From assembly GCA_021740045.1 (NCBI GenBank), contig JAIPAP010000006.1, positions 1 to 56,777 of the forward strand: 56,777 bases of DNA, written 5' to 3'. Position 1 is the stretch's first letter, and each line of letters begins with the position of its first letter. The notes beneath the pieces are model-generated. The model saw only the letters and a list, made by a program, of their open reading frames with translations. It had not been told where the DNA came from and searched no databases. The stretch comes from Bacteroidales bacterium. Lineage in GTDB: Bacteria > Bacteroidota > Bacteroidia > Bacteroidales > JAIPAP01. Position numbers and translations under genes: made by a program. Of this stretch, positions 10,567-46,333 are shown piece after piece.

Positions 10567-13500
10567 ATGAGAACCTTTACATTTTCCTTGGCATTATTGC
10601 TCTCCACAGCAATTTCGGTGCACTGTCAAGAAAAAGCACCGGTAAAATCAAATGAATTAAACCCCTCCAGCCAAACACTTGTAGAGGGGGATTCTTCCAG
10701 GCAGCTTCTTTTACAAAAAAACACAAATAGTTGCGCCAATCAAAACACTGACCGCTTCGGGCATTTCGAATATATTTATTGCGGTGGAGCCGAGCCTGTT
10801 TATACCATCTATTTTTGGGGGATAGCTCTTGATAGCCTGGAATTGGGTTACGGCGATGAGGCGGCTATTTTTGACGGCAATAAACAAGTGGGCACCAAAT
10901 ATTTTGATTCTTCGCCGCAACCGGGCTCCTTTGATTGGGATATGATAGCTTGTTCACAACTTCAAAATGAGCCCGGTTATACTCCCGGCAATCCTTTCAC
11001 CCTTAAATGTTGGGCTGATGATGAGCAAATCGAATCGGAGAACTATGTGCTTACCTTCCATGATCCATACGGAGATGCCTGGACGGAGCCGGTTTTCCCT
11101 GAGGGCGACGGAGTTTATAGCATAATTACCGTTGAATGGACATCTTTAGTTACGGTTAACGGCATCATTTACGCGGCCGATAACGAGGAACCGCTTTCGA
11201 ATGTGGATGTTACCATTACGGGAACTTCTTTCTCAGCGATTACCGATGAAGATGGTTATTATGAAATCGATAGCATACCGGCAGGGGTTTATGATATGGT
11301 AGCATCTGCCCAGGGTTTTCAAACGGAGACCCAATCGGATGTTGAACTTGAAGAAGGACAGCAGGTCACTGTGGATTTCTTTTTGGAAGCCAGTGAGGTT
11401 GCTCCTTTCCTTATCGATGCTCAACCAGGACCTGGTTACATAGTCCTCACCTGGGAAGGGATAAACAGCAATAGTGAGCGAACCGGGCACTTCGATTTTT
11501 ATCAATGTGATACCGGCCCCAGTTGGACACAATTCATTCAGCAAGCTCAAATTAATAATGAAGATATGGTTGCCGGTGATGAGGTAGCAGTCTATGATGG
11601 AGATCTGTTGGTAGGGGCATTTACATTGTCCCAGGTTTGCTCACCCGAAAATGTCTTTGAAAATGATTTTCCGGCATGCTCGGATGTTGGCAATGGTGAT
11701 GGGTATACCGTTGGAAATCCGGTATCCTATGTGGCCTGGGATGAGAGTACAGGTATCGAGATCAGTGATTGTACCTTTGAGTTTTTAGATCCCTATGGCG
11801 ATGCCTGGACAGAGCCTACCTTCCCGCCCGGTGAATCGCCATACAGTATAATGACGTTTCAGTTTTACAGCGATTATGAACCATCGTATAACATTTACCG
11901 CGACGATGAGCTGATCGGAGAGGGCTTTGCCGGTAATCATTATACGGATTTCGACGCCAATCAGGGTACCGAATATTGTTATTGTGTCACCCAGATCATG
12001 CCTGACGGGGATGAATCCGATCCGTCCAATATCCGTTGTGCAAGTCCCACGGGTGTATTCAATGCTCCCTTGCTGAGAAAAGCTGAACCGGGGGTGGAAA
12101 GTGTTGAGTTAAGCTGGGAGCCTATTGGTTCAGCCTTCTATGGAGATTACTTCCAATTTCAAGGTGTTGGAGGGCCGGTATGGACAAATTATATCAGCAT
12201 GGCCACTGTGAATAATCAAGACATGCTCCCCGAGGATGAAATTGCCATTTTTGATGGGGATGTGATTTGTGCTGCCTATATCTTAGAGCGTATTTGTACA
12301 CCTGATAACATGTATGAGAATGACCTCCATGCATTTATGATGGGTCCGGGCGGAGACACCTTATATCATCCCGGAAATCCGGTAATTTACAAAGCATGGG
12401 ATAAAAGTGAGGGAACCGAAATTGAGGATTTCGAGGTAAATTACCTCGACCCTAACGGAGATGCCTGGACGGAACCTTTCTTCCCGGAAGGCGACGGCGA
12501 ATATTCCATTATTGAACTGAACTTTTCATTTGATCCATGGAGTTTTAATGTTTATGAACAAAGCGGAAACCTCCTGGAAGAAAACGTCATTGGCCATAGT
12601 TACACCGTCGAGGATGTAACTCCAGGCAGCGATGAGTGTTATTACATTACCCAAATTCTCGAAAACGGAGAGGAATCCGATCCTTCCAATATGCTTTGTG
12701 AAGTTGCCCTCCCAAAGCAACATTATGAATTGGCAGAAGGGTATCAATTTATTTCCAGCCGCTACATTCCTGACGACCCTGATATGTTGGATGTTTTGGA
12801 AGATATCCTGGATGAACACCTTGATTTTGTGCGTAACAGTAACGGTAACATGGTTCAGAAAGTTGGCCCCGAGTGGATTAACGGCATAGGCGACTGGATT
12901 ACCGAAGAAGGATATCTGGTCAAAATGAACCTGCCCAATGACTTAAGCATAGAAGGACAGGTGATGAACCCATTTAAGACCATAACGCTTGATCCGGGTT
13001 ATGAATTCATAAGTTATTTGCCCGATAGTGCAGTAAACGCTCTTACGGCTTTTGAAAACATACTTGATGAACAACTTGACTTTATCAGGAACAGCAATGG
13101 CGAAATGCTGCAAAAAATCGGAGATGATTGGATTAACAATATTGGAGATGCAGCACCCGGTGAAGGGTATCTTGTTAGGATGGAACAGGCGCATCAGTTA
13201 GTTTATTCCGGCAATGGCATTTGTCCCGATGTTTTCACCTTCCCTGAACAAGGTGTAACCTATGAAGCCGAAGTTATTAATGGCCAATGCTGGATAGCTG
13301 AAAACGCCAATTCCGGTGAATTCCTTTCATCGGGTGAACCGATGACCGATAATGATACCATTGAAAAGTATTGCCTGAAAGGCCTGCCCTATAATTGTGA
13401 TAAATACGGTGGCTTGTATACGTGGGATGAGGCTATGCAATACAATGCCGATACTATCAATTATGGTATTTGTCCGGAGGGCTGGTATGTTGCAACCGAT

Positions 13501-14487
13501 CATGAGTGGAAAGTGCTGGAAGGAAGCGTTGATAGCCAATATGGAGTTGGTGATCCGCAGTGGGAAAACATTGGCTCCCGAGGTTATGATGCCGGCTTTA
13601 TGTTGAAAGAAGAAGTTGGATGGTATAGTAATGGAAATGGCAAAAATTTGTATGACTTTGCTATGCGCCCCGCCAGTTGGACTTTATCTCCAGATTGGGT
13701 AGGTATGAGTACATGGTTTTGGAATGCCAATGAAACAAATGATCAGGAAGCATGGTACAGATATGCTACATATGATGAACCTGGAGTGAGCCGAAATCCC
13801 GATGGAGATAAAACCATTGGATTAAGTGTTCGATGTGTTCACAGGGACGTGCCTGCCAACAATACTTTACATCAGTCTAAACAGAAACCTGAAGAATCAT
13901 TTTTACAGGGCGGTAATCCCGCCGATGCGGTGTTTATGATCTATCTTCAGCCGGCTGTCGGAATCCATAAAGGAGACCGAATTGCAGCCTTCGATGGAGA
14001 TAAAATGGTTGGATTAGCTACCATCCAATCAAACGATTGGCGTGAGAATCAGTTACCTGTTTTTAGCACATTGGCTAAAGGCGCAGGTTATAAGCCCGGG
14101 AATTCAATACAGTTAAAGCGGGTAACTGAAGAAGGCCTTGATGAAATGGAATTTGACCTTGTGGCCTATTATGATGCCTATACCAGCAGGACATTTCCTG
14201 AAGGTGATGGTTTATATGGCATTGCTAAGGTTTCAACAGGATTGGAAAACAATGAGGCTTATATTTCTATTTATCCAAATCCGGCCAATAACAAAGTGAA
14301 TATTAAAGCAAGCTCCGATATAAGAAGTATAGAGATTTATCAGCAGGATGGAAAACTGCTCAGGGTCATTAATAACATTGCCCAAACAGCATTTATTATT
14401 GATCTCTCCCGCTTTGACCCGGGGACATACATCCTTGAGATCAGGACCAATAACAAATTTAACCGGGAGAAACTGGTCGTCCGGTAA
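10567..14487 (+). CDS. Large secreted modular protein: repeated unnamed domain X, carboxypeptidase-regulatory-like, Fn3-like, tandem domain Y, FISUMP domain, T9SS type A CTD
   Basis: Signal peptide; GQCWIAEN...YGGLYTW...GICPEGW...SVRCV (FISUMP); C-terminal IYPNPA...GTYILEI...KLVVR. Confidence 0.85.
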   Translation: MRTFTFSLALLLSTAISVHCQEKAPVKSNELNPSSQTLVEGDSSRQLLLQKNTNSCANQNTDRFGHFEYIYCGGAEPVYTIYFWGIALDSLELGYGDEAAIFDGNKQVGTKYFDSSPQPGSFDWDMIACSQLQNEPGYTPGNPFTLKCWADDEQIESENYVLTFHDPYGDAWTEPVFPEGDGVYSIITVEWTSLVTVNGIIYAADNEEPLSNVDVTITGTSFSAITDEDGYYEIDSIPAGVYDMVASAQGFQTETQSDVELEEGQQVTVDFFLEASEVAPFLIDAQPGPGYIVLTWEGINSNSERTGHFDFYQCDTGPSWTQFIQQAQINNEDMVAGDEVAVYDGDLLVGAFTLSQVCSPENVFENDFPACSDVGNGDGYTVGNPVSYVAWDESTGIEISDCTFEFLDPYGDAWTEPTFPPGESPYSIMTFQFYSDYEPSYNIYRDDELIGEGFAGNHYTDFDANQGTEYCYCVTQIMPDGDESDPSNIRCASPTGVFNAPLLRKAEPGVESVELSWEPIGSAFYGDYFQFQGVGGPVWTNYISMATVNNQDMLPEDEIAIFDGDVICAAYILERICTPDNMYENDLHAFMMGPGGDTLYHPGNPVIYKAWDKSEGTEIEDFEVNYLDPNGDAWTEPFFPEGDGEYSIIELNFSFDPWSFNVYEQSGNLLEENVIGHSYTVEDVTPGSDECYYITQILENGEESDPSNMLCEVALPKQHYELAEGYQFISSRYIPDDPDMLDVLEDILDEHLDFVRNSNGNMVQKVGPEWINGIGDWITEEGYLVKMNLPNDLSIEGQVMNPFKTITLDPGYEFISYLPDSAVNALTAFENILDEQLDFIRNSNGEMLQKIGDDWINNIGDAAPGEGYLVRMEQAHQLVYSGNGICPDVFTFPEQGVTYEAEVINGQCWIAENANSGEFLSSGEPMTDNDTIEKYCLKGLPYNCDKYGGLYTWDEAMQYNADTINYGICPEGWYVATDHEWKVLEGSVDSQYGVGDPQWENIGSRGYDAGFMLKEEVGWYSNGNGKNLYDFAMRPASWTLSPDWVGMSTWFWNANETNDQEAWYRYATYDEPGVSRNPDGDKTIGLSVRCVHRDVPANNTLHQSKQKPEESFLQGGNPADAVFMIYLQPAVGIHKGDRIAAFDGDKMVGLATIQSNDWRENQLPVFSTLAKGAGYKPGNSIQLKRVTEEGLDEMEFDLVAYYDAYTSRTFPEGDGLYGIAKVSTGLENNEAYISIYPNPANNKVNIKASSDIRSIEIYQQDGKLLRVINNIAQTAFIIDLSRFDPGTYILEIRTNNKFNREKLVVR

Positions 14488-30182: not shown

Positions 30183-30515
30183 ATGAGAGTGCACTTGATC
30201 AAGAAACAAACAATTGAGGATTATATTATTAAAAATGCACGAAGTAAAGCATCGTTTGAGACTTGGTACTCAATTTTGTATAGAGCCGATTGGAATTTAC
30301 CCAAAGATATAATTGCAACATTTAACAGTGCTGACATTCTTGGAAAAGGTTCTAATCGTGTAGTATTTAATATTGGTGGTAACAATTATAGACTGATTTG
30401 CCGCTACTATTTTGGAAAAACAAGAGTTCATTTGTTCGTAAAATGGATAGGTACTCATGCAGAGTATACAGCGCTTTGTAATAAAGGAAATCAATACACA
30501 GTGCAATTATATTAG
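30183..30515 (+). CDS. higB: Type II TA toxin, HigB family
   Basis: F.SADIL...RVVFNIGGNNYRLI...FVKWIGTHAEY. Confidence 0.92.
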   Translation: MRVHLIKKQTIEDYIIKNARSKASFETWYSILYRADWNLPKDIIATFNSADILGKGSNRVVFNIGGNNYRLICRYYFGKTRVHLFVKWIGTHAEYTALCNKGNQYTVQLY

Positions 30516-30529
30516 TGAAATGAAGAGAA

Positions 30530-30943
30530 ATGAGTGAAACAAAAACCCTAAAGTATACTGTAATCAAAAGCAAGGACCAATATAACCGGTATTGCGAAAT
30601 ACTGGAAGAATTGGTGACAGTTTACGGTGAACAAGACCAGGAAGAAATAGAGCTGTTATCGTTGCTCATTGATAAATGGGATGAAGAACATAATTCGTTT
30701 TATGATAAGGATCCTATTTCCTTGCTTAAAGCCTTAATGGATGAACATAAGCTCAAGTCAAAAGACCTGATTAACATTTTAGACCTTTCAAAAGCTACGG
30801 TTTCTAAAATTTTAAATTACCACAAGGGCTTATCAAAATCGACAATTCGAAAGCTATCGGAATACTTCAATGTTTCCCAGGAAGCGTTTAATCGCCCTTA
30901 TAAATTGAAAAATGAAGTAAATAGGAAACATGGAGACATTTAG
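30530..30943 (+). CDS. higA: Type II TA antitoxin, HigA family (HTH)
   Basis: IKSKDQY...IELLSLLIDKWDEEH...DPISLLKALM...VSKILN; lies downstream of the toxin. Confidence 0.9.
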   Translation: MSETKTLKYTVIKSKDQYNRYCEILEELVTVYGEQDQEEIELLSLLIDKWDEEHNSFYDKDPISLLKALMDEHKLKSKDLINILDLSKATVSKILNYHKGLSKSTIRKLSEYFNVSQEAFNRPYKLKNEVNRKHGDI

Positions 30944-30945
30944 TT

Positions 30946-31310
30946 AGCACGCGATGCAATCGCGCGCCAGCGGGCGGGTTTCATAATAATAAGAATTGAG
31001 CAATTGTATGGGTAAGTGTTGTTACACTTCAGCCCAATATTCTTGCAAAGACGAGTATTGGCGCGGGTTTCAGGCGGGTTGTGCTAAGGATTAGTAATTG
31101 TTCTAAAGCATCGTGATGCAGGAATTTAACGCGTGCCCGGTAAAGCTCATCGTTTGGAACGAGGTTTTTGCCAGGGCTTTAGCTGGAGCGGATTTGTAAT
31201 CCGCTCCTTTTGGCTGCAACAAGGGTTTGAAGCCGTTGGAATTGTGTATAATGTCGGGCGCGGATTTGAAATCCGCGCCAGCAGGGAACGCGCTGCAAAC
31301 GCTCGCCAGC
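30946..31310. repeat. Cluster of about 26-bp REP-like palindromes ending in GCCAGC or starting GCTGG
   Basis: Copies at 30946-30971, 31182-31207 (opposite orientation), 31257-31282 and 31285-31310. Confidence 0.8.
31059..31163 (+). repeat. 104-105 nt hairpin element, copy A
   Basis: TGGCGCGGGTTTCAGGC...TGCAGGAATTTAACGCGTGCCC...TCGTTTGGAACGAG. Confidence 0.8.
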
Positions 31311-35204: not shown

Positions 35205-35307
35205 GGTTATTTATTTGATTGATTAATTTGATTTTTCCGGGGTAAATATAGGGATTTTGTGGATTTTTGAATGATGAGTTTCTACGACTTTTTTCTTTGC
35301 AGTTAGT

Positions 35308-35411
35308 TGGTGCGCGATTCAGGCGGCTTGCAAATGGTTTTGTAAATGTTCCAAGGCCTTGTCTTGCAGTGGCCTAACGCGTACCTGGTTAACTCTCCCG
35401 TTTTGAACGAG
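35308..35411 (+). repeat. 104-105 nt hairpin element, copy B
   Basis: TGGTGCGCGATTCAGGC...TGCAGTGGCCTAACGCGTACC...CCGTTTTGAACGAG. Confidence 0.8.
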
Positions 35412-35750
35412 ATTTTCTTAAAGCTTTTTAAAAGCGCCATAATTAGCTTTATACACATTAGCTTCGGTTTTATCTCCTCCATTTTCAAATATGATTTCTT
35501 GCTTATACTCTGATATAGAACATTCTTGCTTTACATAGGAGCTTTTATATAATAATTTCATCAAAATTTGCATCTTATGATGATCTGTATTAAATTTACA
35601 ACGGATATAACATTTTTTTGAAGGTGAAACTTTGCTATTTATACTATACCCTGCCACTGCTTTACTATTATAAAAAAGGTTGAATTGCCCTGATAACAAC
35701 TAAATTTATAATAACATAATCATACTAATGAGTAACCAATTCTAATAATT

Positions 35751-38700
35751 ATGAAAAGAGCAGTACTAATTATTGCCGCATTTTTTGCCTGTACCTTTAT
35801 TTTCGGGCAAAACAGCAACCCTAAAGAAAACGGCCGTGCCAGCCAAACCATTGAATTGGAAATCGGCTACCGTTTTGTATCCTCCCACATCCTGCCGGAT
35901 GATCCTGATATGCTGGTGGTGCTGGAAGAAGTGCTGGGCGATAATGTAGAATTTATCCGCAATGCCCAGGGTGAGATCATCCAAAAGGTTGGCCCCAACT
36001 GGATCAACGGCATAGGTGATTGGAATACAACTGAAGGCTATTTATTCAAGATGACCGGAGCCGAAACCCTCACCCTGAATGGCGATGTAATCGACCCTGC
36101 CACTCCGATACCCGTGCAGGCCGGATACCGGTTTGTAAGCTACCTGCCTGCGGAGCCATTGGATGCCATGGAAGCTTTTGAAAGCATAATTGGTGATGAC
36201 CTTGAGTTTATACGCAATATGTATGGCAATGTGATAAACAAGATAGGCCCCAACTGGATCAACGGCATAGGCGAAGCCCAGCCCGGGGAGTTTTACCTGG
36301 TAAAAATGCTGGGTGATGGTGAATTAATTTATCCCGGCCAAAGCCAGCCCGAATGCCCCTCCACCTTCACCGACCCCCGCGACGGGCAGGAATATGAGGG
36401 GGTACTAATCGGCGACCAATGCTGGATGGCCGAAAACCTGAATATAGGCACTATGATTCCAGGCGAAGATGATATGCAGGACAACGGAACCATTGAAAAA
36501 TACTGCTATGATGACGATGAAGCCAACTGCTATGAATACGGCGGCCTTTATCAATGGGATGAAATAATGCAATATACCACCCAGCAGGGGACGCAAGGTA
36601 TTTGTCCGCCTGGCTGGCATATTCCAACCGATGAAGAATGGATGATGCTGGAAGGTACTGTGGATAGCCAGTACGGCTATCCTGATCCCGAATGGGAACA
36701 AACCGGATTACGTGGTTTCGATGCCGGATACAACTTGAAAAGCACCAGCGGATGGGAGGGCAACGGTAACGGTTCCGATGCCTTTGGCTTTGCAGGCTTG
36801 CCGGCGGGCTTCAAGAATTTTAATGGATTTTTCTACTATCTTGGCTACAGCAGTACCTGGTGGTCTTCATCCCAGGCTAATAATTCGAGTGCTTGGGGCC
36901 GCTCTCTCCTTTACTATGATGAGCAGGTAAATCGCGGCACTAACACTAAGGATTTTGGTTTCTCCATACGTTGCCTAAAACATGAGCCCGGCCAAAACTT
37001 ACCCCCAGGCTATCCCTTTAATCCATCGCCTGAAGATGGCGCTTCCGGTCAATCCATTATTACCACACTTTCCTGGGAATGCACCGATCCCGACCAAGAC
37101 CCGATTACCTATGATGTGTATTTTGGAATGAATGAAGACCCCCAGCAGGTTGCCACAGCAATAACCGAAACTATCTATGATCCCGGTACCTTGGAATACA
37201 GCACCACCTATTACTGGAAAATCGTTGCCCATGATGATCAGGGCAACACTACCGAAGGTCTGGTATGGAGTTTTACCACTGAAGAAGAACCTCCTGAATG
37301 CCCGGCCTCCTTCACTGACCCCCGCGACGGGCAGGAATATGAAGCGGTGTTAATTAGTACCCAATGCTGGATGGCCGAAAACCTGAATATTGGGGAGATG
37401 ATTCCCGGTGCAGATGACATGCAGGACAACGGAACCATTGAAAAATACTGCTATGATGACGATGAAGCCAACTGCGACGAATACGGCGGTCTTTACCAAT
37501 GGGATGAAATGATGCAATACACCACCCAGCAGGGAACACAGGGCATTTGCCCGCCCGGATGGCATATTCCTATCGACCAGGAATGGATGATACTTGAAGG
37601 TGCAGTAGATAGCCAGTATGGTTACCCCGATCCCGAATGGGAACAAACCGGATGGCGCGGTTATGATGCGGGTTACAACCTGAAAAGCACTAACGGTTGG
37701 TATAACGACGGCAACGGTTCCGATGCCTTTGGTTATACAGCCATGCCGGCGGGCTACCGGAATGCCAATAATTCATTCTATTTTCTTGGCTACGGCAGTA
37801 ACTGGTGGTCATCATCTGTAGGTGGTGATTCTACGAGCGCCTGGGGCCGTTCCCTTTTTTACGATAATGAGCAGGTGTACCGCTACGATAACGATAAGAA
37901 TTTCGCTTTCTCCATGCGTTGCCTGAAGTATGAGACCGGCCAAAACCAACCCCCGGCCGAGCCCTCCAATCCATCACCTGAAGATGGCGCTTCCGCTCAA
38001 TCCATTATTACCCCACTTTCCTGGGAATGCACCGATCCGGACCAAGACCCGATTACCTATGATGTGTATTTTGGAATGAATGGAAACCCTCAGCAGGTTG
38101 CCACCGGATTAACCGAAACCACTTATGTTCCGGGGACTTTGGAATTTAACACCACTTATTACTGGAAAATCATAGCCCATGATGACCATGCCAACACTAC
38201 TGAAGGTCCGGTGTGGAGTTTTACCACAGAAGAAGCACCCGAGTGCCCGGAAACCTATACAGATCCCCGCGATGGACAGGAATACGAAGCGGTGTTAATT
38301 GGTAATCAATGCTGGATGGCCGAAAACCTGAATATTGGCTCTATGATCCCAGGAGTAGATGACATGCAGGATAACGATACCCTTGAAAAATATTGTTATA
38401 ATGATGACCCTGTGAATTGTGATACCCTAGGTGGCCTTTACCAGTGGGATGAAATGATGCAATACACCACCCAGCAGGGGACACAAGGCATTTGCCCGCC
38501 CGGATGGCATATCCCTACAGACGTTGAGTGGATGATGCTGGAAGGTATGGTAGATAGCCAGTACGGTTATCCTGATCCCGAATGGGAAACACAAGGTTGG
38601 CGAGGTTTTGATGCTGGTTATAAACTAAAAAGCACTAGCGGTTGGTATGCCAACGGTAACGGCTCCGATGCCTTTGGCTTTGCGGCCTTGCCGGCGGGAG

Positions 38701-39824
38701 AACGGACAATCAGTAGCACGTTTTACGGTATTGGTCAATGGGGTTATTGGTGGTCCTCATCAGAAAATAGTCCCTGGACTTCCTGGATCAGGTTCATGGG
38801 TTCCAGTAGCGAACAGGTATACCGCCAGTATAATTCTAATGATGGCGGGTTATCTATACGTTGCCTAAAACATGAGCCCGGCCAAAACTTACCCCCGGTC
38901 TATCCCTTTAATCCATTGCCTGAAGATGGCGCTTCCGGTCAATCCATTATTACCACACTTTTCTGGGAATGCACCGATCCGGAGCAGGACCCGCTTACTT
39001 ATGATGTGTATTTTGGAATGAATGAAGACCCCCAGCAGGTTGCCACAGCAATAACCGAAACTATCTATGGTCCCGATACCTTGGAATACAGCACCACCTA
39101 TTACTGGAGAATCGTTGCCCATGATGACCAGGGAAACACTACTGAAGGACCGGTATGGAGTTTTACTACAGCAGAAGAAACCACTAGCTGCCCTGCTACC
39201 TTCACCGACCCCCGCGACGGGCAGGAGTATGAAGCCGTTCAAATTGGAGACCAATGCTGGATGGCCGAAAACCTGAATATTGGGGCGATGATTCCCAGTG
39301 TAGATCAAATGCAGGATAACGGTACCCTTGAAAAATATTGTTATGATGATGACCCTGTGAATTGTGATACCCTGGGTGGCCTTTACCTGTGGGGTGAAAT
39401 GATGCAATACACCATTCAGCAGGGAACCCAGGGCATTTGCCCCGAAGGATGGCATATCCCCTCTGATGAAGAATGGATGATGCTGGAAGGCACTGTAGAT
39501 AGCCAGTATGGCTACCCCGATCCCGAATGGGAATATACTGGAAGCCGCGGCTACGATGCCGGCTACAACCTGAAAAGCACCAGCGGTTGGGAAGATAACG
39601 GCAACGGCTCCGATGCCTTTGGTTTTACGGGCTTGCCAGCAGGCCACCTGGATTCCGGTGGCTGGTTCTACGATCTTGGCTACTACGGCTTCTGGTGGTC
39701 CTCATCGGAGAGTGATGGTTCTTACGCCTGGTACCGCTACTTGCTTTACCACAAAGAAAAAGTGGGCCGCTATGCTTGCAGCAAGGATTACAGTTTTTAC
39801 GTGCGTTGCCTAAAGAACGATTAA
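35751..39824 (+). CDS. Secreted protein: tandem domain Y + four FISUMP (Fib_succ_major) domains separated by three Fn3-like domains; putative DGR target
   Basis: 4x TDPRDGQEY...QCWMAENLN...GGLYxW...GICPxGWHIP...WWSSS...RCLK. Protein ends at the last FISUMP domain. Confidence 0.9.
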   Translation: MKRAVLIIAAFFACTFIFGQNSNPKENGRASQTIELEIGYRFVSSHILPDDPDMLVVLEEVLGDNVEFIRNAQGEIIQKVGPNWINGIGDWNTTEGYLFKMTGAETLTLNGDVIDPATPIPVQAGYRFVSYLPAEPLDAMEAFESIIGDDLEFIRNMYGNVINKIGPNWINGIGEAQPGEFYLVKMLGDGELIYPGQSQPECPSTFTDPRDGQEYEGVLIGDQCWMAENLNIGTMIPGEDDMQDNGTIEKYCYDDDEANCYEYGGLYQWDEIMQYTTQQGTQGICPPGWHIPTDEEWMMLEGTVDSQYGYPDPEWEQTGLRGFDAGYNLKSTSGWEGNGNGSDAFGFAGLPAGFKNFNGFFYYLGYSSTWWSSSQANNSSAWGRSLLYYDEQVNRGTNTKDFGFSIRCLKHEPGQNLPPGYPFNPSPEDGASGQSIITTLSWECTDPDQDPITYDVYFGMNEDPQQVATAITETIYDPGTLEYSTTYYWKIVAHDDQGNTTEGLVWSFTTEEEPPECPASFTDPRDGQEYEAVLISTQCWMAENLNIGEMIPGADDMQDNGTIEKYCYDDDEANCDEYGGLYQWDEMMQYTTQQGTQGICPPGWHIPIDQEWMILEGAVDSQYGYPDPEWEQTGWRGYDAGYNLKSTNGWYNDGNGSDAFGYTAMPAGYRNANNSFYFLGYGSNWWSSSVGGDSTSAWGRSLFYDNEQVYRYDNDKNFAFSMRCLKYETGQNQPPAEPSNPSPEDGASAQSIITPLSWECTDPDQDPITYDVYFGMNGNPQQVATGLTETTYVPGTLEFNTTYYWKIIAHDDHANTTEGPVWSFTTEEAPECPETYTDPRDGQEYEAVLIGNQCWMAENLNIGSMIPGVDDMQDNDTLEKYCYNDDPVNCDTLGGLYQWDEMMQYTTQQGTQGICPPGWHIPTDVEWMMLEGMVDSQYGYPDPEWETQGWRGFDAGYKLKSTSGWYANGNGSDAFGFAALPAGERTISSTFYGIGQWGYWWSSSENSPWTSWIRFMGSSSEQVYRQYNSNDGGLSIRCLKHEPGQNLPPVYPFNPLPEDGASGQSIITTLFWECTDPEQDPLTYDVYFGMNEDPQQVATAITETIYGPDTLEYSTTYYWRIVAHDDQGNTTEGPVWSFTTAEETTSCPATFTDPRDGQEYEAVQIGDQCWMAENLNIGAMIPSVDQMQDNGTLEKYCYDDDPVNCDTLGGLYLWGEMMQYTIQQGTQGICPEGWHIPSDEEWMMLEGTVDSQYGYPDPEWEYTGSRGYDAGYNLKSTSGWEDNGNGSDAFGFTGLPAGHLDSGGWFYDLGYYGFWWSSSESDGSYAWYRYLLYHKEKVGRYACSKDYSFYVRCLKND
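36348..39824 (+). repeat. Intragenic tandem repeat, 945-bp period
   Basis: DPRDG codons start at 36372, 37317, 38262 and 39207. Confidence 0.9.
39645..39824 (+). other. Putative DGR variable region (VR)
   Basis: 42 of the last 59 sense codons end in C/T. Variable positions are mostly NNY codons between fixed W/R/S/C scaffold codons, as expected from an AAY-rich template. Confidence 0.65.
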
Positions 39825-39862
39825 TTGACAACCTGCCAGCCGGCTGGTTTGAATATTTGACC

Positions 39863-39900
39863 ATTAAAATCCCGCCTGTGGCGGGATTTTAATTTTTTTT
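39863..39900 (+). terminator. Hairpin / intrinsic terminator after the FISUMP gene
   Basis: ATTAAAATCCCGCC-TGT-GGCGGGATTTTAAT followed by a T tract. Confidence 0.8.
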
Positions 39901-40060
39901 ATGCAGGTAAAAGAAATACTGGAAAACGAAGATCAGAAAAATATTTACCTATATAAAACTGGATTATTCTGGCGGGTATATGAATATTCGGCGTTTCATT
40001 TTTTACGCATATTAGCGTATTCAAGCTGATAATAAGGTATTATAGAGTGGTACGTAGGAC
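39901..40060 (+). pseudogene. Frameshifted, truncated remnant of a MutS-N-terminal-like (MSL-type) DGR accessory gene
   Basis: MQVKEILENEDQKNIYLYKTGLFWRVYEYSAFHF, then after a 1-nt shift in the T6 run (39999-40004) THISVFKLIIRYYRVV. Not in the ORF track. End approximate. Confidence 0.6.
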
Positions 40061-40106
40061 GCCTGAGACAATCCCTCGGCAATCAGTATTTTGCAGAACA
40101 GTGAGC

Positions 40107-40210
40107 TGGAGCACGTTTCAGGCGGAGTGCATTTGGTTTCCTCAATGCGCTGGCTCGTTGGATTGCAGGGACTTAACGCGTACCCATAAAATTCCCTCGT
40201 TTTGAACGAG
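40107..40210 (+). repeat. 104-105 nt hairpin element, copy C
   Basis: TGGAGCACGTTTCAGGC...TGCAGGGACTTAACGCGTACCC...CTCGTTTTGAACGAG. Confidence 0.8.
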
Positions 40211-40295
40211 ATGGAAAAATTGTTTACCAACATTAGGATTGGTTTTTTTACCAATGGGCCGTGTGTTATCTCGCTAAAAGCGAGTGAAATCAATC

Positions 40296-40321
40296 GGCAC
40301 GCGTTGCAAACGCGCGCCAGC
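40296..40321 (-). repeat. REP-like palindrome
   Basis: Minus strand GCTGGCGCGCGTTTGCAACGCGTGCC. Confidence 0.8.
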
Positions 40322-40456
40322 CAACGGGTTGTGGAGTTCTGAAGAAAAATTAGTAATTGATAGAGATGCCGGAGAAGCGTATTTTATTCAGGATATAGAA
40401 TGCACAATGAAAATCCTTATCCGTAAGCTTAACGCAGAACAGTTCGATGGCGCGCG

Positions 40457-42320
40457 GTGTGCCGTGAGTAAAGCGTTCTTTACATAACTGCAAATAAGAT
40501 GGTGGAGCGGGCCCACCGGAGTCTCTCTGCAGGGAGCGGCTTCAAACAACTGTTTTAATGCATGGGAAGTGATTCTTGTGTGTTGAGCGAAAACAGAAAA
40601 GGCTGAACGATTATCAGTCATGTGCGGATAAAAGAGATGAACGAAAGTGAACCTTTGATGAAGCATCGAGAAATCTAAACTATCTGCCAAAACCACGATT
40701 TCGCGCGGTTAGTGGGATAAGCATAGCGGGAACCTGTTTACTGGCTATGTGGTAGACGTTGTTAAGAAGGCATGACTTTTATCCAGGCTTGTTTGCGGAA
40801 CACGGGAAGCCTCTTGCTGATGCAAAAAGGAAAGTACAAGCGTAAAAGCAAGGCAATTACTAATGCAGCAAGAGGTGGCGGATGAACTCGTAGTAGCGAA
40901 GAAGCTTCTGTAACGGAAGTGGAGCGAAGGGGTTCAATCATACAGTTTTCAACTTATAAACAACTCATCAGATGAGAAGGATTTTTAACGAGAAAACAAA
41001 ACCCTTACCCATCAGTAAGGAAATGGTGTGGAAGGCTTACAAGAAAGTCAGATCGAACAAAGGAAGTGCAGGAGTTGACAATGAGAGCATCCAAAAGTTC
41101 GAGGAGAACCTCTCGGACAACCTGTATAAACTTTGGAACCGGCTGGCTTCAGGGAGCTATTTCCCACCGGCAGTCAAAGAACAGGAGATTAACAAGGATA
41201 ACGGGAAGAAAAGAAAGCTCGGCATCCCGACAGTCTCCGACAGGATTGCCCAACAGGTGATAAAGGAATACCTGGAACCAAGACTGGAAAAGGAATTCCA
41301 TGAATCATCCTATGGGTATCGACCATTCAGGAATGCGCATCAAGCCTTGACAAAAGTCAGGGAAAATGCCCGCAAATATGCCTGGGTAATCGACCTTGAC
41401 ATAACGGCCTTCTTTGATCATGTCGATCACAAGAAGCTGTTAACCGCCCTTGAATGGCACGCCAAGGAGAAATGGGTCAACATGTATGTAAAGAGATGGT
41501 TAGAAGCGCCAATAGCCAAGGCTAATGGTGAATTAGAAGAAAAGAAAGGCAGAGGCACTCCACAAGGCGGTGTTATCAGTCCTTTACTGGCTAACCTATA
41601 CCTTCATTATACATTTGACAAATGGATGGCCAAGCACTTTCCAACCATTACCTTTGTACGCTATGCAGATGACATCGTCATTCATTGCGTAAGTGAAAAA
41701 CAATCGCTGTATGTTCTGGGAAAACTCAAACAAAGGCTGTCAGATTGCAATTTAACCATACACCCGGAAAAGACTCATGTGGTTTACTGCAAGGCTAGTA
41801 AGCGAAAACCAGTTCTAACAGGGAAAAGGGTAAAATTCGATTTTCTCGGTTTCAGTTTTCGCCCTGAAAGCAAGTGGTCAAAACATGGGGATATGTCCCT
41901 GGGGTATGACTGCAAGATAAGCCAGAAATCGTATTCGAAGATCGTTAAGGAAATTAAACGCACTCGTTTCGACAGATGGGCCAAATCGTGGCAGGAGATT
42001 GCAGATTTACTGAACAGCAAAATACGGGGATGGGTCCAATACTATGATGGATTCCGTTCCCGTGCAATGTCGAAAGTTTTCCACCGACTGCACAACCGAC
42101 TGATAAAATGGATTATGAACCGGTACAAAAGGTTTAGAGGCAAGAAACGGAAAGCGATAGCTTACCTAAAGTTTATCTATCGCCGTTATCCTTATTTGTT
42201 CTACCACTGGAGTATCGGTTACCATTTGGTATAGTTTGTATGATAGGAGCCGTATGACGGGAGACTGTCACGTACGGTTCTGTGAGAGGCATGGGGTGAA
42301 ACTCCCTGTGCCTACTCGAC
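40457..42320 (+). mobile_element. Group II intron (IIB, bacterial class D / RmInt1-like), 1864 nt
   Basis: 5' GTGTG; domain V GAGCCGTATGACGGGAGACTGTCACGTACGGTTC at 42247-42280; domain VI ending CCTACTCGAC; EBS1 40702-40707 and EBS2 40664-40669 complementary to the 5' exon; removal restores a repeat copy. Confidence 0.93.
40972..42234 (+). CDS. ltrA: Group II intron reverse transcriptase/maturase without endonuclease domain
   Basis: NKGSAGVD...NLYKLWNRLASGSYFPP, LGIPTVSDRIAQ, GTPQGGVISPLLAN, RYADD, FDFLGF, X domain IRGWVQYY. Confidence 0.95.
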   Translation: MRRIFNEKTKPLPISKEMVWKAYKKVRSNKGSAGVDNESIQKFEENLSDNLYKLWNRLASGSYFPPAVKEQEINKDNGKKRKLGIPTVSDRIAQQVIKEYLEPRLEKEFHESSYGYRPFRNAHQALTKVRENARKYAWVIDLDITAFFDHVDHKKLLTALEWHAKEKWVNMYVKRWLEAPIAKANGELEEKKGRGTPQGGVISPLLANLYLHYTFDKWMAKHFPTITFVRYADDIVIHCVSEKQSLYVLGKLKQRLSDCNLTIHPEKTHVVYCKASKRKPVLTGKRVKFDFLGFSFRPESKWSKHGDMSLGYDCKISQKSYSKIVKEIKRTRFDRWAKSWQEIADLLNSKIRGWVQYYDGFRSRAMSKVFHRLHNRLIKWIMNRYKRFRGKKRKAIAYLKFIYRRYPYLFYHWSIGYHLV

Positions 42321-42415
42321 TTTCAGGCTAATTGCAATTCATTTCTTCAATGTACTGGCCTTATCAAATGCAGGTGCTTAACGCGTGCCCAATAAAACCC
42401 CTCGTTTGTAAAGAG
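42321..42415 (+). repeat. 104-105 nt hairpin element, copy D (3' part; its first 9 nt are 40448-40456)
   Basis: TGGCGCGCG|TTTCAGGC...TGCAGGTGCTTAACGCGTGCCC...CTCGTTTGTAAAGAG; 9+95 = 104 nt. Confidence 0.85.
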
Positions 42416-42579
42416 ATTTTAAATCCACTTGCCAGAGGCTGGATAGATAGAACAATTGCACAAGGTTTGCAAACCTTTCCCAGGTCTAAAGGTGCAGCTT
42501 CACGGTTGGAAACCCTATACCTGCATTAAAATAGTATTCAAAAGTTTTCAACACCGCCGTTTCTTTATACGATCCCTTA

Positions 42580-42587
42580 TATTTTTG
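42580..42587 (+). promoter_or_regulatory. -7 promoter element for the SNF2 gene
   Basis: TATTTTTG matches TAnnTTTG. Confidence 0.55.
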
Positions 42588-42604
42588 TAGAAAGAAAGAA
42601 TATT

Positions 42605-45600
42605 ATGGCTCAATCATTCCATAATTCACAGGTAAAGACCAAATTATCGATGATGCTGGAATTCATTGATTTTGGCTCGCATGCCCGGGGTGCGCATTTA
42701 TTCGAAAAAGGACATGTAAAATCCTGGCGGGTGAATAATGAAAACGTTACAATAGAAGTGGATGTGCTCGCTTCGGCATCCAATAAAACCTACAAGGTGG
42801 AGCTTACCTTTAATAATTTGCTTAAAAGTACTTGTTCATGTCCCTACAACTGGGGACTATGTAAACATACGGCAGCGGCAGCCTACAAGTTACTGCAACA
42901 TGTTCATAACAAGAATACACCCATATTTGCCCTGGACCAGTCGAATACCGTAGTAGTAATTCCCTTGCTTACCGAGGAATGGATATCGGGTAACACACCA
43001 CCTCGCTTAAAAGGTGAAGTTAAACGGCTTGAAGAAAATGCCGGTTTTGAACTACAGAAGATCGAACAAGGCGAAATTGTGGTAAAACTGCAAAGCGGAA
43101 GACATTCTTATCCGGTAAGTTTCAAGGTGGAAAAACAGGACACATCCGTCATTACATCCTGCAAATGCAAGGAAGGACGTTTTCCGCTTTGCAAACATAA
43201 GCTGGCAGCATTTCGCTACCTCCATACAAATAAGGGTGAAGACGCCCTGGAACAATCCCTGAACTGGTATTATGAGAAAAAGGCCATTATCGACGATTTG
43301 GGGCTTTCGGAAGAGGTTGTTAATAAATATTCAAAGCTTTTTAAGTTTTACTTTGAAAACCGCGACATTTACCTAATGCAGACTCACGGTTCTCTGCTAT
43401 TGAAACATGAGCTTGATATAATACCCCAAGCCAAGGTGATCCCTGAGCAAGTGGAACCCCCGGTAATGGATGATTTTCAGGAGCTGGGGTTGGCCTATGT
43501 GCTTAAATTCAAATATGTTGATCATCCTGTTCCCGATTTGGAAGTGATTCCGGCTTTTGGAAAAATGAACAAGAATAAAGACCGCATAAAAAGCCATTTT
43601 GAAAGAATTGAAAACCCGCTTGAAAACACGGTATTCTTAGAATTGGCCAGGGCAAAGGATTATGATATCATCAGGGAAGCCGGAAAGCTCTACAAAGTTA
43701 TGGCAAAAATTCAGTATTTTGATTATTACGAAGACCCCTATGAATATATCAATATGCTGAGGGTGCTCAATATCCTCAATCCTTTGTTAAATAGATTATC
43801 CGGTAGTTTGACCTATATTTTCGAGGATGACGGTCTGGACATGAAGCTTAAGGATTGCCGGCATGTTTATATTTCGGAAGACCCCATGAAGGCTAAAATT
43901 AAACAAACGTCCAATGAGCTTCTGCAGGAACTTCATATCACTTATTATCAAAAGGATAAAAAGCATGATTTAAGCCCGGAGGATACTGCTTATTTTTGGT
44001 TGTTGAAAAAGGGCCAAATCATCTTTCCCTGGCATAATGCCGGCACCCTTTACCTGTATTCCCTCTCGGATACCGGGCATTCCGGAAAGCTCAGGTTTTT
44101 GAGCGAGCACTATAATGCTGTATTTGAGCGGTTTGTTCAGTTTTTTCATGATAAGGTTGAAATGGAGTTGGCCGATGCCAATAAGGAGTCGCATCAGGAT
44201 GTTGAACCCGACAGGAAAATCTACATCAAGGAACAAAGCGGCTATATTATGTTCTTTCCGGTATTAGCCTATGACGAAAAAGAAATCAGTGCAGTTCATC
44301 CTTCCGAAGGATACCTTTTTCACCAAAAAGATGAGCAGGTCATTAAGTATGAACGCAAGCCGGAGCTCGAAACGGATTTCTTAAACTTGTTCAAAAACAC
44401 CCATTCTGCCTTTGACCAACAGCAGCAAGACAACTACTATTACTTATCACCCGAACAGATGCTGGAGGACAACTGGTTTATTGACTTTTATGAACAATGC
44501 AAATCCCATGAGATCGAAGTATATGGATTCAAGGATTTGAAATCCATTAAATATTACCCGGCCCATCCCAGTGTAAGTTATTCCATAAAATCGGGTGAAG
44601 ATTGGTTTGATATGGAAATGCAGGTGGATTACGACAATCACCCGGTTTCACTGAAAGACCTTCGGAAAGCAGTGATCAACAAAGAGAAAATGGTACCCAT
44701 AGGCAATGGTATGTATGGAATGCTCCCGGAGGATTTTGTCAGAAAGTTCGAAACCGCCTTGAAATTCGGGGAAATTGATGAGGATAAGGTCTCTTTCCAA
44801 AAATCGCAGTTTTCCATTATTCACTCCCTGCTCGATCAGCAATCGGATGGGCAAATTGCCGAGGAACTGGCTGAAAAAATGCAGTTGCTCAAATCGTTTA
44901 ATGAGATCACTGCCATAAATCCCCCTTCAAAACTCAAAGCTGAATTGCGTGATTACCAGAAAGCGGGTTTGTCATGGCTGGCTTTCCTGGCTAAGTACAA
45001 TTTTGGCGGTTGCCTGGCCGATGATATGGGCCTGGGCAAAACAGTGCAAATGCTGGCCTTTTTCCTCCACTTGAAAGAACAACAACCACGCAAAAAATAC
45101 ACGCACCTGGTGGTTTGCCCTACAACCCTGTTGTTCAACTGGGAAAACGAGATTGCCAAATTTGCTCCCCAACTGAAAACCGATGTGCATTGGGGAAATA
45201 CCCGGAATTTTGAAAAAAAGGAATGGAGGAAAAAAGACGTTATCCTCACCACTTACGGCACCATGGTAAACGACATTGAACAACTGCATGAATTTCGTTT
45301 TACCACGGTTGTATTCGATGAATCGCAGGCCATGAAAAACCCATCTTCATTGCGGTTTAAAGCGGCTTTATTGATTCAAGCCGATTACCGCTTTTCGCTC
45401 ACCGGCACACCCATCGAAAACAATACCATTGAGCTTTTCTCGCAAATGCATGTGCTCAACAAAGGGCTGTTAGGGAATTTCAACTTTTTCCGAAAAACTT
45501 ACGGCAAAAACATGAACGGGGACGGGAGCACACATTTGCGGGCCGAACTGCGTAAGATGGTATATCCGTTTATTCTGAGGCGAACCAAAGAAAAGGTAGC

Positions 45601-46333
45601 CTCCGAGTTGCCCGAAAAATCGGAAATGGAGCTTTATTGCGAAATGGGCGATCACCAGCGACAAATATATGATGTTTTCAGAGCTAAATACAAAAATCAG
45701 TTAATCAGTAAGATTGAAGAAGAAGGCATGAATAAAGCCCGATTTAATGTGCTGGACGGTATCCTGAAACTAAGGCAAATCTGCGATTCCCCGTCGCTGG
45801 TCAATACCGATGAATACTATGGTGATGAATCGGTAAAGGCTGAAGAATTAATCCGGCATATCATGGAGAAAACCACCAATCATAAAGTGCTCGTTTTTTC
45901 GCAGTTCGTTAAGATGCTTGACCTGATCCGGACCCGGTTGGAAAGTGAAGGCATTACATACACCTCACTTGATGGCAGCACCCGTGACCGGCAGGAACGG
46001 GTTGAATATTTTCAAAATTCCGATGAATGCCGTGTTTTTCTCATCAGCTTGAAAGCAGGTGGATATGGCCTGAATTTAACAGCTGCCGATTACGTATACC
46101 TGGTCGATCCCTGGTGGAACCCGGCCGTGGAAACCCAGGCCATCGACCGCACACACCGGATTGGACAAGACAAAAAAGTTTTTGCCTACCGGATGATCTG
46201 CAAAAATACCATTGAGGAAAAAATCCTCAACTTGCAGAAGAGGAAGAGAAGCCTTGCTGAGGATATCATTACCGAAGAAAGTAGTTTTGTGAAAAACCTT
46301 ACCAAGAAGGATATTGAGCATTTGTTTAGCTAA
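42605..46333 (+). CDS. SWIM zinc-finger SNF2 family helicase
   Basis: Two SWIM motifs (CSC...CKH, CKC...CKH); LADDMGLGKT, DESQ, LTGTPIENN, QAIDRTHRIGQ. Confidence 0.93.
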   Translation: MAQSFHNSQVKTKLSMMLEFIDFGSHARGAHLFEKGHVKSWRVNNENVTIEVDVLASASNKTYKVELTFNNLLKSTCSCPYNWGLCKHTAAAAYKLLQHVHNKNTPIFALDQSNTVVVIPLLTEEWISGNTPPRLKGEVKRLEENAGFELQKIEQGEIVVKLQSGRHSYPVSFKVEKQDTSVITSCKCKEGRFPLCKHKLAAFRYLHTNKGEDALEQSLNWYYEKKAIIDDLGLSEEVVNKYSKLFKFYFENRDIYLMQTHGSLLLKHELDIIPQAKVIPEQVEPPVMDDFQELGLAYVLKFKYVDHPVPDLEVIPAFGKMNKNKDRIKSHFERIENPLENTVFLELARAKDYDIIREAGKLYKVMAKIQYFDYYEDPYEYINMLRVLNILNPLLNRLSGSLTYIFEDDGLDMKLKDCRHVYISEDPMKAKIKQTSNELLQELHITYYQKDKKHDLSPEDTAYFWLLKKGQIIFPWHNAGTLYLYSLSDTGHSGKLRFLSEHYNAVFERFVQFFHDKVEMELADANKESHQDVEPDRKIYIKEQSGYIMFFPVLAYDEKEISAVHPSEGYLFHQKDEQVIKYERKPELETDFLNLFKNTHSAFDQQQQDNYYYLSPEQMLEDNWFIDFYEQCKSHEIEVYGFKDLKSIKYYPAHPSVSYSIKSGEDWFDMEMQVDYDNHPVSLKDLRKAVINKEKMVPIGNGMYGMLPEDFVRKFETALKFGEIDEDKVSFQKSQFSIIHSLLDQQSDGQIAEELAEKMQLLKSFNEITAINPPSKLKAELRDYQKAGLSWLAFLAKYNFGGCLADDMGLGKTVQMLAFFLHLKEQQPRKKYTHLVVCPTTLLFNWENEIAKFAPQLKTDVHWGNTRNFEKKEWRKKDVILTTYGTMVNDIEQLHEFRFTTVVFDESQAMKNPSSLRFKAALLIQADYRFSLTGTPIENNTIELFSQMHVLNKGLLGNFNFFRKTYGKNMNGDGSTHLRAELRKMVYPFILRRTKEKVASELPEKSEMELYCEMGDHQRQIYDVFRAKYKNQLISKIEEEGMNKARFNVLDGILKLRQICDSPSLVNTDEYYGDESVKAEELIRHIMEKTTNHKVLVFSQFVKMLDLIRTRLESEGITYTSLDGSTRDRQERVEYFQNSDECRVFLISLKAGGYGLNLTAADYVYLVDPWWNPAVETQAIDRTHRIGQDKKVFAYRMICKNTIEEKILNLQKRKRSLAEDIITEESSFVKNLTKKDIEHLFS

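Follow-up and report, generated by a model that had tools for sequence, protein, structure and literature searches.

Does a surface-protein gene that ends like a DGR target, with no DGR machinery beside it, still belong to a working DGR, to one that was lost, or to none? This question was raised by a window of 56,777 nucleotides (the whole stretch of DNA analysed; contig JAIPAP010000006.1 of the Bacteroidales bacterium assembly GCA_021740045.1), for which an earlier note made from the letters alone had proposed either a remote target diversified in trans or the survivor of a decayed DGR.

The target gene (35751-39824, + strand) encodes a secreted or surface protein of 1357 aa, as judged from its ORF translation and profile matches, with a hydrophobic signal-like N-terminal segment and FN3/Ig-like spacers between four FISUMP (CLec-type) domains. 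According to the profile matches, these domains lie on the + strand at 36351-36986 (domain 1 or D1, aa 201-412), 37296-37934 (domain 2, aa 516-728), 38241-38876 (domain 3 or D3, aa 831-1042) and 39186-39821 (the terminal domain D4, aa 1146-1357). The fourfold architecture read from the letters was confirmed with two profiles, both matching in four stretches: TIGR02145 reached 567 bits against a cut-off of 41.65, and PF09603 reached 446 bits against one of 33.9. The gene also ends exactly at a FISUMP domain, as had been claimed, the RCLK motif of D4 being followed by two residues and then by the end. A T9SS tail was absent from the 1357-aa protein. The divergence among the four domains is judged to be old from their third codon positions, which are only ~58% identical. 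No ortholog above 64% identity was found, which precludes a close comparison of the locus.

Two cassettes from order-level relatives, G024:C115 (L031) and G011:C167 (L032), served as references and were joined by a metagenome locus, L056. In both G024 and G011 a 151-aa gene stands between a target gene ending in a FISUMP domain and bAvd-TR-RT, bAvd and RVT_1 being found downstream. Of the mismatches between the TR (template repeat) and the variable repeat (VR), 32 of 34 (G024) and 23 of 25 (G011) fall at template adenines, and on these sequence features both cassettes are regarded as true DGRs. Self-comparison revealed an adenine-specific TR/VR pair in 6 of 15 loci of the accessory family (L041, L042, L044, L045, L048 and L052). 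The best of the 79 closest metagenomic relatives of D4 was L056 (63% aa identity), which is a DGR VR with 27 of 28 mismatches at TR adenines and with bAvd and RT adjoining; the other 78 were without DGR parts within 5 kb.

VRs of the Fib_succ_major/DUF1566 type are a known class of DGR targets, and MSL accessory genes co-occur with avd (PMC5758913). As described there by Wu et al. 2018, target class 'd' comprises DUF1566/DUF823/Fib_succ_major proteins with CLec2 VRs, Legionella LdtA being an example. The window resembles this class as described in PMC5758913 in that a surface protein has its VR-equivalent at the extreme C-terminus, within a FISUMP/CLec-type domain, and in that the scaffold codons align with true VRs and TRs; the intact cassettes of its relatives also have a small accessory gene ahead of avd, as in class 'd' DGRs with MSL and Avd. 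Unlike the DGRs of that description, it has no TR, avd or DGR RT, its accessory gene is cut to ~41 codons, and its target carries four FISUMP domains instead of one.

True VRs and TRs align with the last ~190 nt of the target gene, a stretch that closes the ORF and belongs to a CLec-type (FISUMP/DUF1566) domain. The presumed former VR (39630-39821, +) was delimited by codon-for-codon alignment with the VR/TR of the intact G024 and G011 DGRs. NNY codons had been pointed out at this end of the gene; the count itself was correct (42 of the 59 codons of 39645-39821 end in C/T), but it was not significant (binomial p = 0.09). NNY codons make up 841/1357 (62%) of the whole gene, and 12% of all its 59-codon windows contain at least 42 C/T-ending codons. 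A position-specific pattern did emerge, since codons opposite AAY of the related DGR TRs are NNY in 20 of 21 cases in D4 versus 23 of 39 elsewhere in the segment (Fisher p = 0.003). Other FISUMP domains of the genome, both internal ones of this gene and paralogs on other contigs, show NNY at the same 21 positions (D1 and C155a 21/21 each, C22a and C155b 20/21 each), lower scores being found for C60 (17/21), D3 (15/21) and C22b (11/21). Of 56 metagenomic FISUMP domains that have no DGR part within 5 kb, 16 likewise carry the signature; a 57th match, the TR of L056, was set aside. Because internal, paralogous and metagenomic FISUMP domains show it too, the signature does not single out D4 from its paralogs, and the NNY argument in its original form is weak. 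The window differs from the G024 and G011 TRs at 44 of 134 non-A positions and 31 of 57 A positions; adenine-specific mutagenesis of this VR is not directly demonstrable because the cognate TR is missing.

In the 3′ flank of the gene, immediately past its terminator, the first accessory gene of a DGR, that of the 151-aa family, survives as a stump: a 42-codon ORF (39901-40029, +) in which homology ends near 40020. When compared with the whole genome, the 151-aa protein of the G024 cassette matched a single place, 39901-40020 (residues 1-40, 58% identity, E 3.3e-10), the runner-up match having an E value of 0.34. By tblastx the stump and the cassette gene share 64% identity over 36 aa, and in a 17-row alignment the stump agrees at every one of the 11 columns that are invariant over residues 1-41. 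No accessory gene next to a TR, whether avd or msl with avd, was found in the window, residues 1-40 of the 151-aa family being the sole remnant. The region 39561-40005 aligned with the VR, spacer and gene start of G024 as one piece (450 nt, 61.6%, E 4e-36), and the alignment with G011 was likewise one colinear piece, the homology to both cassettes running from the VR into the accessory gene and stopping at about 40020. As in the G024, G011 and L056 cassettes, the gene ends in a FISUMP domain, its VR scaffold is homologous, the spacer carries ATTTGAC-type repeats and a terminator, and the accessory gene begins ~80 nt past the stop. Whereas those three cassettes continue with bAvd, TR and RT, the window breaks at ~40020 into a repeat element bearing a group II intron.

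The 151-aa family is probably of the MSL (MutS-like) type. MSL proteins are small, resemble MutS domain I in fold and are encoded in avd-containing DGRs; this family shares a cassette with bAvd, MutS_I matches 3 of its 17 members weakly (best E 0.042), and its atlas neighbours (score 0.93) carry MutS_I on 24% and 14% of their members. A Foldseek search with an AF2 model of the family (pLDDT 59) gave no matches at E <= 0.001, MutS ranking 5th with E 0.12. Relative to the MSL proteins as described in PMC5758913, the MutS-like nature of the window's accessory family is weakly supported. At 4 of the 15 loci the family is represented by no more than a fragment (residues 14-70, 1-38, 1-57 and 1-42). 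The scan patterns sit in residues 17-34, so that only fragments containing these residues can be found and similar fragment lengths carry little weight.

Both structures that had been described past the stop codon were recovered. The GC palindrome CCAGCCGGCTGG lies 12 nt past the stop (39836-39847) and forms a short hairpin (39830-39849, z = -2.8). G024 and G011 have one after the VR too; among seven intact related cassettes it occurs in 2, and none was found in the same slice of the other 5. It may be a relic of a target-recognition hairpin. The long hairpin (39863-39893; stem of 14 bp, loop of 3 nt), together with the T run behind it, was scored as an intrinsic terminator of the target gene (39863-39901, +), an equivalent hairpin plus T run being present in G024 and G011.

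The remaining DGR parts were sought around the gene and throughout the genome. No TR-type repeat of the target was found in 39300-42700, in agreement with the earlier note. Its statement that no RT is present locally was wrong when taken literally, an RT ORF being located at 40972-42234, but right for a DGR-type RT, as this ORF belongs to a group II intron. The candidacy of this RT, 1.15 kb downstream, as a DGR RT was rejected: it carries RVT_1 plus GIIM and is flanked by group II intron domains from Rfam (D1-D4 at 40501-40622, D5-D6 at 42245-42320; RF01999 78.5 bits and RF00029 64.3 bits, both above gathering). The intron (40457-42320, +) begins with GUGUG at 40457, the exact point where homology to uninterrupted copies of the repeat ends. 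By its RT/maturase, its ribozyme domains and its GUGYG start, the element is classified as a group II intron and no part of a DGR. It is inserted in one copy of a multi-copy repeat element, whose 5′ part (40067-40456) stands in place of the rest of the cassette and whose 3′ continuation lies at 42321-42450.

The sole RVT_1 match in the 3.9-Mb, 97%-complete assembly is that of the intron ORF (41188-41856, with GIIM). An RT of the DGR clade is absent from this assembly, in which the G024 DGR RT weakly matched the intron ORF alone (E 7.5e-6), and bAvd (PF22296) gave nothing over the cut-off, its best score being 34.5 bits on another contig. The genome contains no adenine-biased repeat of 39400-39900; the repeats of this segment are FISUMP-domain paralogs with at most about 75% identity, plus a short match to the terminator hairpin, and the mismatches of the paralogs checked over 39560-39860 are unbiased. 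A non-coding, adenine-biased copy of the gene's 3′ end beside a DGR-type RT, for which a genome-wide search had been suggested, was thus not found. A degenerate VR/TR pattern had no match in metagenome contigs or viral contigs. In the X1 run, a contig of depth 62 (flanking single-copy contigs: 63-67.5) spans the VR and covers 39256-40307 with 0 differences, and a contig of the X2 run covers 39256-40272 with 1 difference, although contigs hide rare variants.

Four readings of these observations were weighed. MAGs often miss mobile elements, and a DGR on an unbinned contig, plasmid or prophage could still be rewriting the VR in trans, its target-side features (open frame, short GC hairpin, terminator) being intact. 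Remote targets are known in DGRs, as described in PMC4891356. This first proposal of the earlier note nevertheless found no support and appears very improbable: no DGR-type RT and no TR-like, adenine-biased repeat was detected in 3.9 Mb at 97% completeness, the degenerate pattern matched nothing, and the VR was identical or nearly so in the contigs of two runs at a depth equal to that of the single-copy flanks. Still harder to credit is an ordinary FISUMP paralog without a DGR history of its own, whose NNY codons would stem from binding loops rich in Tyr, Asn, Asp, Ser and Gly. Such an origin agrees with the non-significant raw NNY count, with the same pattern in internal domains and unrelated paralogs and with the old divergence of the four domains, but it leaves the colinear spacer and the cassette-gene stump unexplained, and the closest relative of D4 is a DGR VR.

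A more serious rival, though an unlikely one, is that duplication or recombination transferred D4, or just its 3′ flank, from the locus of a DGR target, together with the spacer and the accessory gene's first codons. Such a copy would descend from a DGR but would never have been diversified, or have worked as a target, here. In G011 a spacer-plus-stump module beside a second FISUMP gene (near brxA/B/C) is 93% identical to that of the cassette, while the VR parts of these two loci are unrelated; modules of this kind can thus spread as copies, and the gene in the window may have gained its flank with no diversification at this site. The fragments at four accessory-family loci also fit copying, the two downstream contexts examined (L049 and L055) differing from each other, although their similar lengths weigh little given the placement of the scan patterns. 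No intact donor cassette exists in the window's genome, however, and the stump shares no more than 58-64% identity with the cassettes seen, which would make any copying old. Taken together, the evidence makes it likely that D4 is a former DGR target whose cassette was lost and whose VR was left frozen. The survivor of a decayed DGR is thus the proposal that gained support, mainly from evidence new to this analysis, namely the colinear accessory-gene stump and a DGR VR as closest relative. As only the stump of the first accessory gene remains beside the target, D4 now appears frozen.

What the sequences show directly is the stump, its colinearity with intact cassettes, the absence of TR, bAvd and DGR-type RT, and a uniform VR in the contigs of two runs; for the lost-cassette reading we infer both the prior diversification of this very gene copy and the route by which the cassette was lost. 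The last FISUMP domain, of C-type-lectin fold, in a ligand-binding surface protein would have been the VR of a DGR ordered target, msl-like gene, bAvd, TR, RT. In its active phase the RT would have put in random bases wherever the template repeat has an adenine, and with the resulting cDNA taking the place of the gene's final ~190 nt, about 20 codons templated by AAY would have been rewritten in the binding surface. Loss of the cassette could then have come about by deletion or rearrangement at a repeat element, or the gene end plus flank could have been copied away from its cassette. Left over would be the gene, the spacer (with its hairpin and terminator) and ~41 codons from the start of the first accessory gene, the VR now being ordinary frozen coding sequence. 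The kind is already known: target genes stranded after DGR loss were described in Treponema, where VR-bearing genes persist in genomes without RT or TR, which is interpreted as the aftermath of losing the DGR (PMC4891356, 2016). According to that description, the cognate TR is known there from sister isolates and adenine-specific differences are demonstrable, whereas the window has no close relative; unlike the Treponema leftovers described, it has a physical cassette stump that marks the break.

A wider reading, that FISUMP paralog families at large are fossil records of DGR activity, with domains rewritten, then duplicated or detached from cassettes and fixed, is put forward tentatively and is rather doubtful at present. 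A synonymous-site test on the 56 metagenomic domains that lack DGR parts within 5 kb found 219 four-fold degenerate codons ending in C/T at TR-AAY-aligned positions versus 176.9 expected (stratified by amino acid), an excess reached by 29 of 1000 random position sets. Among the four domains of the target protein, codon positions 1 and 2 are 33-36% identical at TR-AAY-aligned codons versus 90% in the remaining domain. Modules of spacer plus accessory-gene stump occur beside other FISUMP genes at 4 of 15 loci, one being the G011 module mentioned above, and this recurrence of detached modules suggests one way in which the ends of diversified genes might part from their cassettes.

The locus thus appears to show the last stage of a DGR: once the hypermutation machinery has been deleted, the binding domain that it diversified lives on in a normal gene, and the break is marked by a stump that can be dated. 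For annotation it carries the warning that an NNY-rich FISUMP end plus a nearby RT does not equal a DGR, and the accessory-gene stump is offered as a marker of former targets. If the wider reading is true, past mutagenesis by retroelements would account for part of the binding-site diversity in the large FISUMP paralog families of Bacteroidota.

The 1357-aa product of the open reading frame at 35751-39824 (+) has a signal-like, hydrophobic segment at its N-terminus. Profile searches detected four FISUMP domains (FISUMP D1-D4; PF09603, 446 bits, and TIGR02145, 567 bits, four stretches each), which are separated by FN3/Ig-like spacers. The gene indeed ends at a FISUMP domain, since the protein terminates two residues past the RCLK motif of the fourth one. 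A T9SS tail is absent from this protein but present in three of its neighbours. The neighbourhood comprises T9SS-tailed surface proteins, a HigB/HTH pair, DUF3857/transglutaminase proteins and housekeeping enzymes, and the region looks like Bacteroidota-type chromosomal DNA. The pair (30183-30943), in which an HTH gene of the Cro/C1 type comes after the gene for a HigB-type toxin, looks like a toxin-antitoxin system. A second FISUMP gene is located at 10567-14487 (1306 aa); this protein also carries CarboxypepD_reg domains and has a T9SS sorting domain at its C-terminus, so that its FISUMP domain is internal.

The earlier note had described the terminal domain as resembling a diversity-generating retroelement (DGR) target with neither a template repeat (TR) nor a reverse transcriptase (RT) nearby. 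The first part held, as no repeat of the last domain was found in 39300-42700; the second did not, as an RT ORF is present at 40972-42234. When 39400-39900 and 39560-39860 were compared with the entire assembly by BLAST at low stringency, only other FISUMP coding domains were returned, at no more than about 75% identity, and the mismatches to these paralogs showed no preference for any of the four bases. An adenine-biased homologous repeat was thus not found in this genome, which is one of the results that the note itself had listed as speaking against a DGR target. A degenerate VR/TR pattern (VR, variable repeat), with N at the codon positions aligned to TR AAY codons and at scaffold adenines, gave 0 matches in metagenome_contigs and 0 in viral_contigs, both of which possibly lack records of this genome.

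In the assembly, which amounts to 3.9 Mb and is 97% complete, RVT_1 matches the RT ORF (420 aa, RVT_1 and GIIM domains) and nothing else. This ORF was rejected as the missing DGR RT on account of its GIIM maturase domain and of the Rfam group II intron domains D1-D4 and D5-D6 that flank it (RF01999, 78.5 bits, and RF00029, 64.3 bits, both above gathering), and it belongs to a complete-looking group II intron at 40457-42320. The 5' GUGUG at 40457 marks the exact end of homology to other copies of an unannotated intergenic repeat family, and the repeat picks up at 42321; elsewhere in the genome, contig C34 has a copy that is not interrupted and runs from 6062 to 5867 and then directly from 5866 to 5792. 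The intron was thus inserted in one repeat copy, and the order at the locus is gene, spacer, stump of an accessory gene, repeat with intron, and SNF2/SWIM helicase gene. This last gene (42605-46333), directly past the interrupted repeat, encodes a 1242-aa protein with SWIM, SNF2 and helicase-C domains. Repeat-family sequence begins at about 40067, and no homology to bAvd, TR, DGR RT or the remainder of the accessory gene was detected 3' of the stump. The family gave 24 BLAST HSPs (one being the self-match) on 10 contigs, with copies in the window at 35300-35413, 40067-40456, 42321-42450 and 31116-31168 and elsewhere in the genome on C34, C155, C57, C103 and others. It has a conserved core of ~110 nt including a CTCGTTTTGAACGAG hairpin, has no Rfam match, and brackets the FISUMP gene in the window as well as FISUMP paralogs on C155.

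A search of 40 order-level relatives was made with window 39300-40100. Two matches extended beyond the stop codon, both adjoining RT genes. In G024:C115 (locus L031, read on the minus strand) an 877-aa PKD and FISUMP target gene ending in a VR is followed by a 151-aa ORF without Pfam family, then by bAvd (PF22296), the TR and the RT. Mismatches between TR and VR fall on template adenines in 32/34 cases in G024:C115 and in 23/25 in G011:C167 (locus L032), and these two loci are therefore true DGRs. The window forms one colinear alignment with both, which takes in the VR scaffold, the spacer, the terminator and, of the 151-aa gene, the first ~36-40 codons (39561-40005 against G024: 61.6% over 450 nt, E 4e-36; gene start: 64% over 36 aa). 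When the 151-aa protein was searched against the window's genome, the sole place recovered was 39901-40020 (residues 1-40, 58% identity, E 3.3e-10), the next match having an E of 0.34. Aligned with 16 members of the family, the 42-codon ORF of the window retains 11/11 invariant columns over residues 1-41 and stops thereafter.

Fifteen loci with the accessory family were found in genome_contigs, all under Bacteroidota-type record titles. Self-comparison revealed an adenine-specific TR/VR pair in 6/15, several others being cut by contig ends. Four of the 15 hold a gene fragment only (residues 14-70, 1-38, 1-57 and 1-42), although the scan patterns lay within residues 17-34 and so biased which fragments could be found. 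Stumps like that of the window are thus recurrent, as the three fragment-only loci that were checked, out of four, are each preceded by a VR-like FISUMP end. Synteny of these loci with the window was ruled out: downstream, L049 has genes for a T9SS protein and a sigma-70 factor, whereas L055 has brxA/B/C.

The assignment of the accessory family itself is a lead. According to Wu et al. (PMC5758913), MSL (MutS-like) accessory genes encode 112-283 aa and co-occur with avd, and one class of DGR targets has DUF1566/DUF823/Fib_succ_major motifs; the 151-aa family resembles MSL, as characterized there, in cassette position and size. No Pfam family exceeded the cut-off for it, MutS_I matched 3/17 members (best E 0.042), and a PDB profile search gave Alba-like matches only, at E 0.035 or weaker. 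In its Atlas neighbours (0.93), MutS_I is present on 24% and 14% of members. The AF2 model was of low confidence (pLDDT 59), and Foldseek returned nothing at E <= 0.001 for it, with MutS at rank 5 (E 0.12). The family might accordingly be called MSL-like.

The stump and the colinearity with the intact cassettes of G024 and G011 favour the suggestion of the earlier note that the gene is the survivor of a decayed DGR. Further support comes from the 79 metagenomic relatives closest to FISUMP D4: DGR parts lie within 5 kb of the best one alone (L056, 63% aa), which has bAvd, an RT sharing 73% identity with the G024 enzyme, and a TR/VR pair in which 27/28 mismatches are at A. The last FISUMP domain is probably derived from a VR, the cassette past accessory codon ~41 having been lost and the domain being now fixed. 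Diversification in trans, the other suggestion of that note, would make the domain a live target of an unseen DGR; this is improbable, given that the only RVT_1 protein in the assembly is assigned to a group II intron and that no adenine-biased repeat was found. The gene end might instead have been copied to the window locus and never diversified there. Such modules of spacer plus stump can evidently be copied, to judge from G011, where the spacer and first accessory codons on C72 (L055 3901-4064) are 93% identical to those of the genome's own cassette (C167 4854-5018) and lie beside a FISUMP gene that differs from the cassette's, adjoins brxA/brxB/brxC and has no partner TR for its VR part. 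This copy keeps the explanation alive, if rather unlikely, next to an orphaned target.

That the terminal domain is an ordinary FISUMP paralog is the least probable explanation, hardly to be expected beside the stump and the colinear alignment. The four domains (36351-39821) are 80-85% identical over their first 152 residues and 37-62% over the last 60. Identity at codon positions 1+2 is 90% for the N-part, 71-79% for VR scaffold codons and 33-36% at the AAY-aligned codons, and at third positions about 51-62% (~58%) in every class. The duplications are old, and the internal domains could therefore also be explained by diversifying evolution of the ordinary kind. The proposed comparison of orthologous loci was made at order level only, there being no close ortholog (best 63% aa in metagenome_contigs; none of the top 120 proteins listed exceeded 64%).

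The count of 42 C/T-ending codons among the 59 at 39645-39821 was reproduced, but this richness proved poor evidence for a DGR: 62% of codons are NNY gene-wide (binomial p = 0.09), and at least 42 is reached by 12% of the gene's 59-codon windows, so that the raw count was discarded. Codon positions were instead defined by the 21 codons reading AAY in the TRs of G024 and G011 (18 in both, 3 in one), with FISUMP D2 and other gapped hits excluded. At these codons FISUMP D4 has 20/21 NNY, against 23/39 at other codons (Fisher p = 0.003). Other FISUMP domains of the genome reach similar values (D1 and C155a 21/21, C22a and C155b 20/21) or lower ones (C60 17/21, D3 15/21, C22b 11/21), and at least 20/21 was observed in 17/57 ungapped hits from the 79 metagenome loci (L056-L134), or 16/56 without the TR of L056. 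Because paralogs and metagenomic domains show the same pattern, the signature is family-wide and cannot alone mark FISUMP D4 as a VR. At four-fold degenerate codons, C/T endings amount to 40/45 at AAY-aligned and 149/251 at other positions in the eight genome domains, which are paralogs and not independent; this pool replaced a five-domain one (28/28) whose members had been picked after the counts were seen. In the 56 metagenomic FISUMP domains, none of which has DGR parts within 5 kb, 219 C/T endings were observed at the aligned four-fold codons versus 176.9 expected when stratified by amino acid, an excess reached in 29/1000 position permutations. These four-fold figures are suggestive only, because the domains are related to one another; the signature may be a mutational trace.

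Downstream of the stop codon, the palindrome CCAGCCGGCTGG was confirmed at 39836-39847 (fold z = -2.8). The hairpin noted at 39863-39893 does have a 14-bp stem; with the T run after the stem it scores as an intrinsic terminator, and it is the terminator of the gene. In phage BPP-1, efficient retrohoming is reported to need a hairpin/cruciform just past the VR (PMC3240598). The palindrome occupies the site of 6-bp and 8-bp GC hairpins in G024 and G011, and a GC hairpin is absent from the same 47-nt slice in 5/7 intact related cassettes; by analogy, the small hairpin is compatible with a retrohoming role without being diagnostic. Short ATTTGAC[A/C]ATTTG-like repeats occur in the spacer between VR and accessory gene, in the window (39848-39862) and in L041, L042, L044 and L052. 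These repeats, common to the window and several intact cassettes, might serve the operon of the cassette as promoter elements.

The contigs of three runs from a single lake-water study were inspected; two runs contain the stretch, and the third (X3) has next to nothing of it. The X1 contig (1052 nt, depth 62.3) matches 39256-40307 with 0 differences and the X2 contig (1017 nt) matches 39256-40272 with one; flanking single-copy contigs in X1 have depths of 63-67.5. As both contigs span it, the junction between stump and repeat is seen in two samples. The VR showed no visible heterogeneity in them, which is weak evidence for a frozen VR because contigs hide rare variants.

DGR targets that persist in genomes lacking both RT and TR have been described in Treponema denticola (PMC4891356), and the window gene would resemble those reported there as a DGR target left without either. 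Orphaned targets are thus a kind already known, to which the window gene probably adds one more case; what deserves to be pursued is the family-wide synonymous NNY trace together with the recurrent, detached spacer-plus-stump modules.
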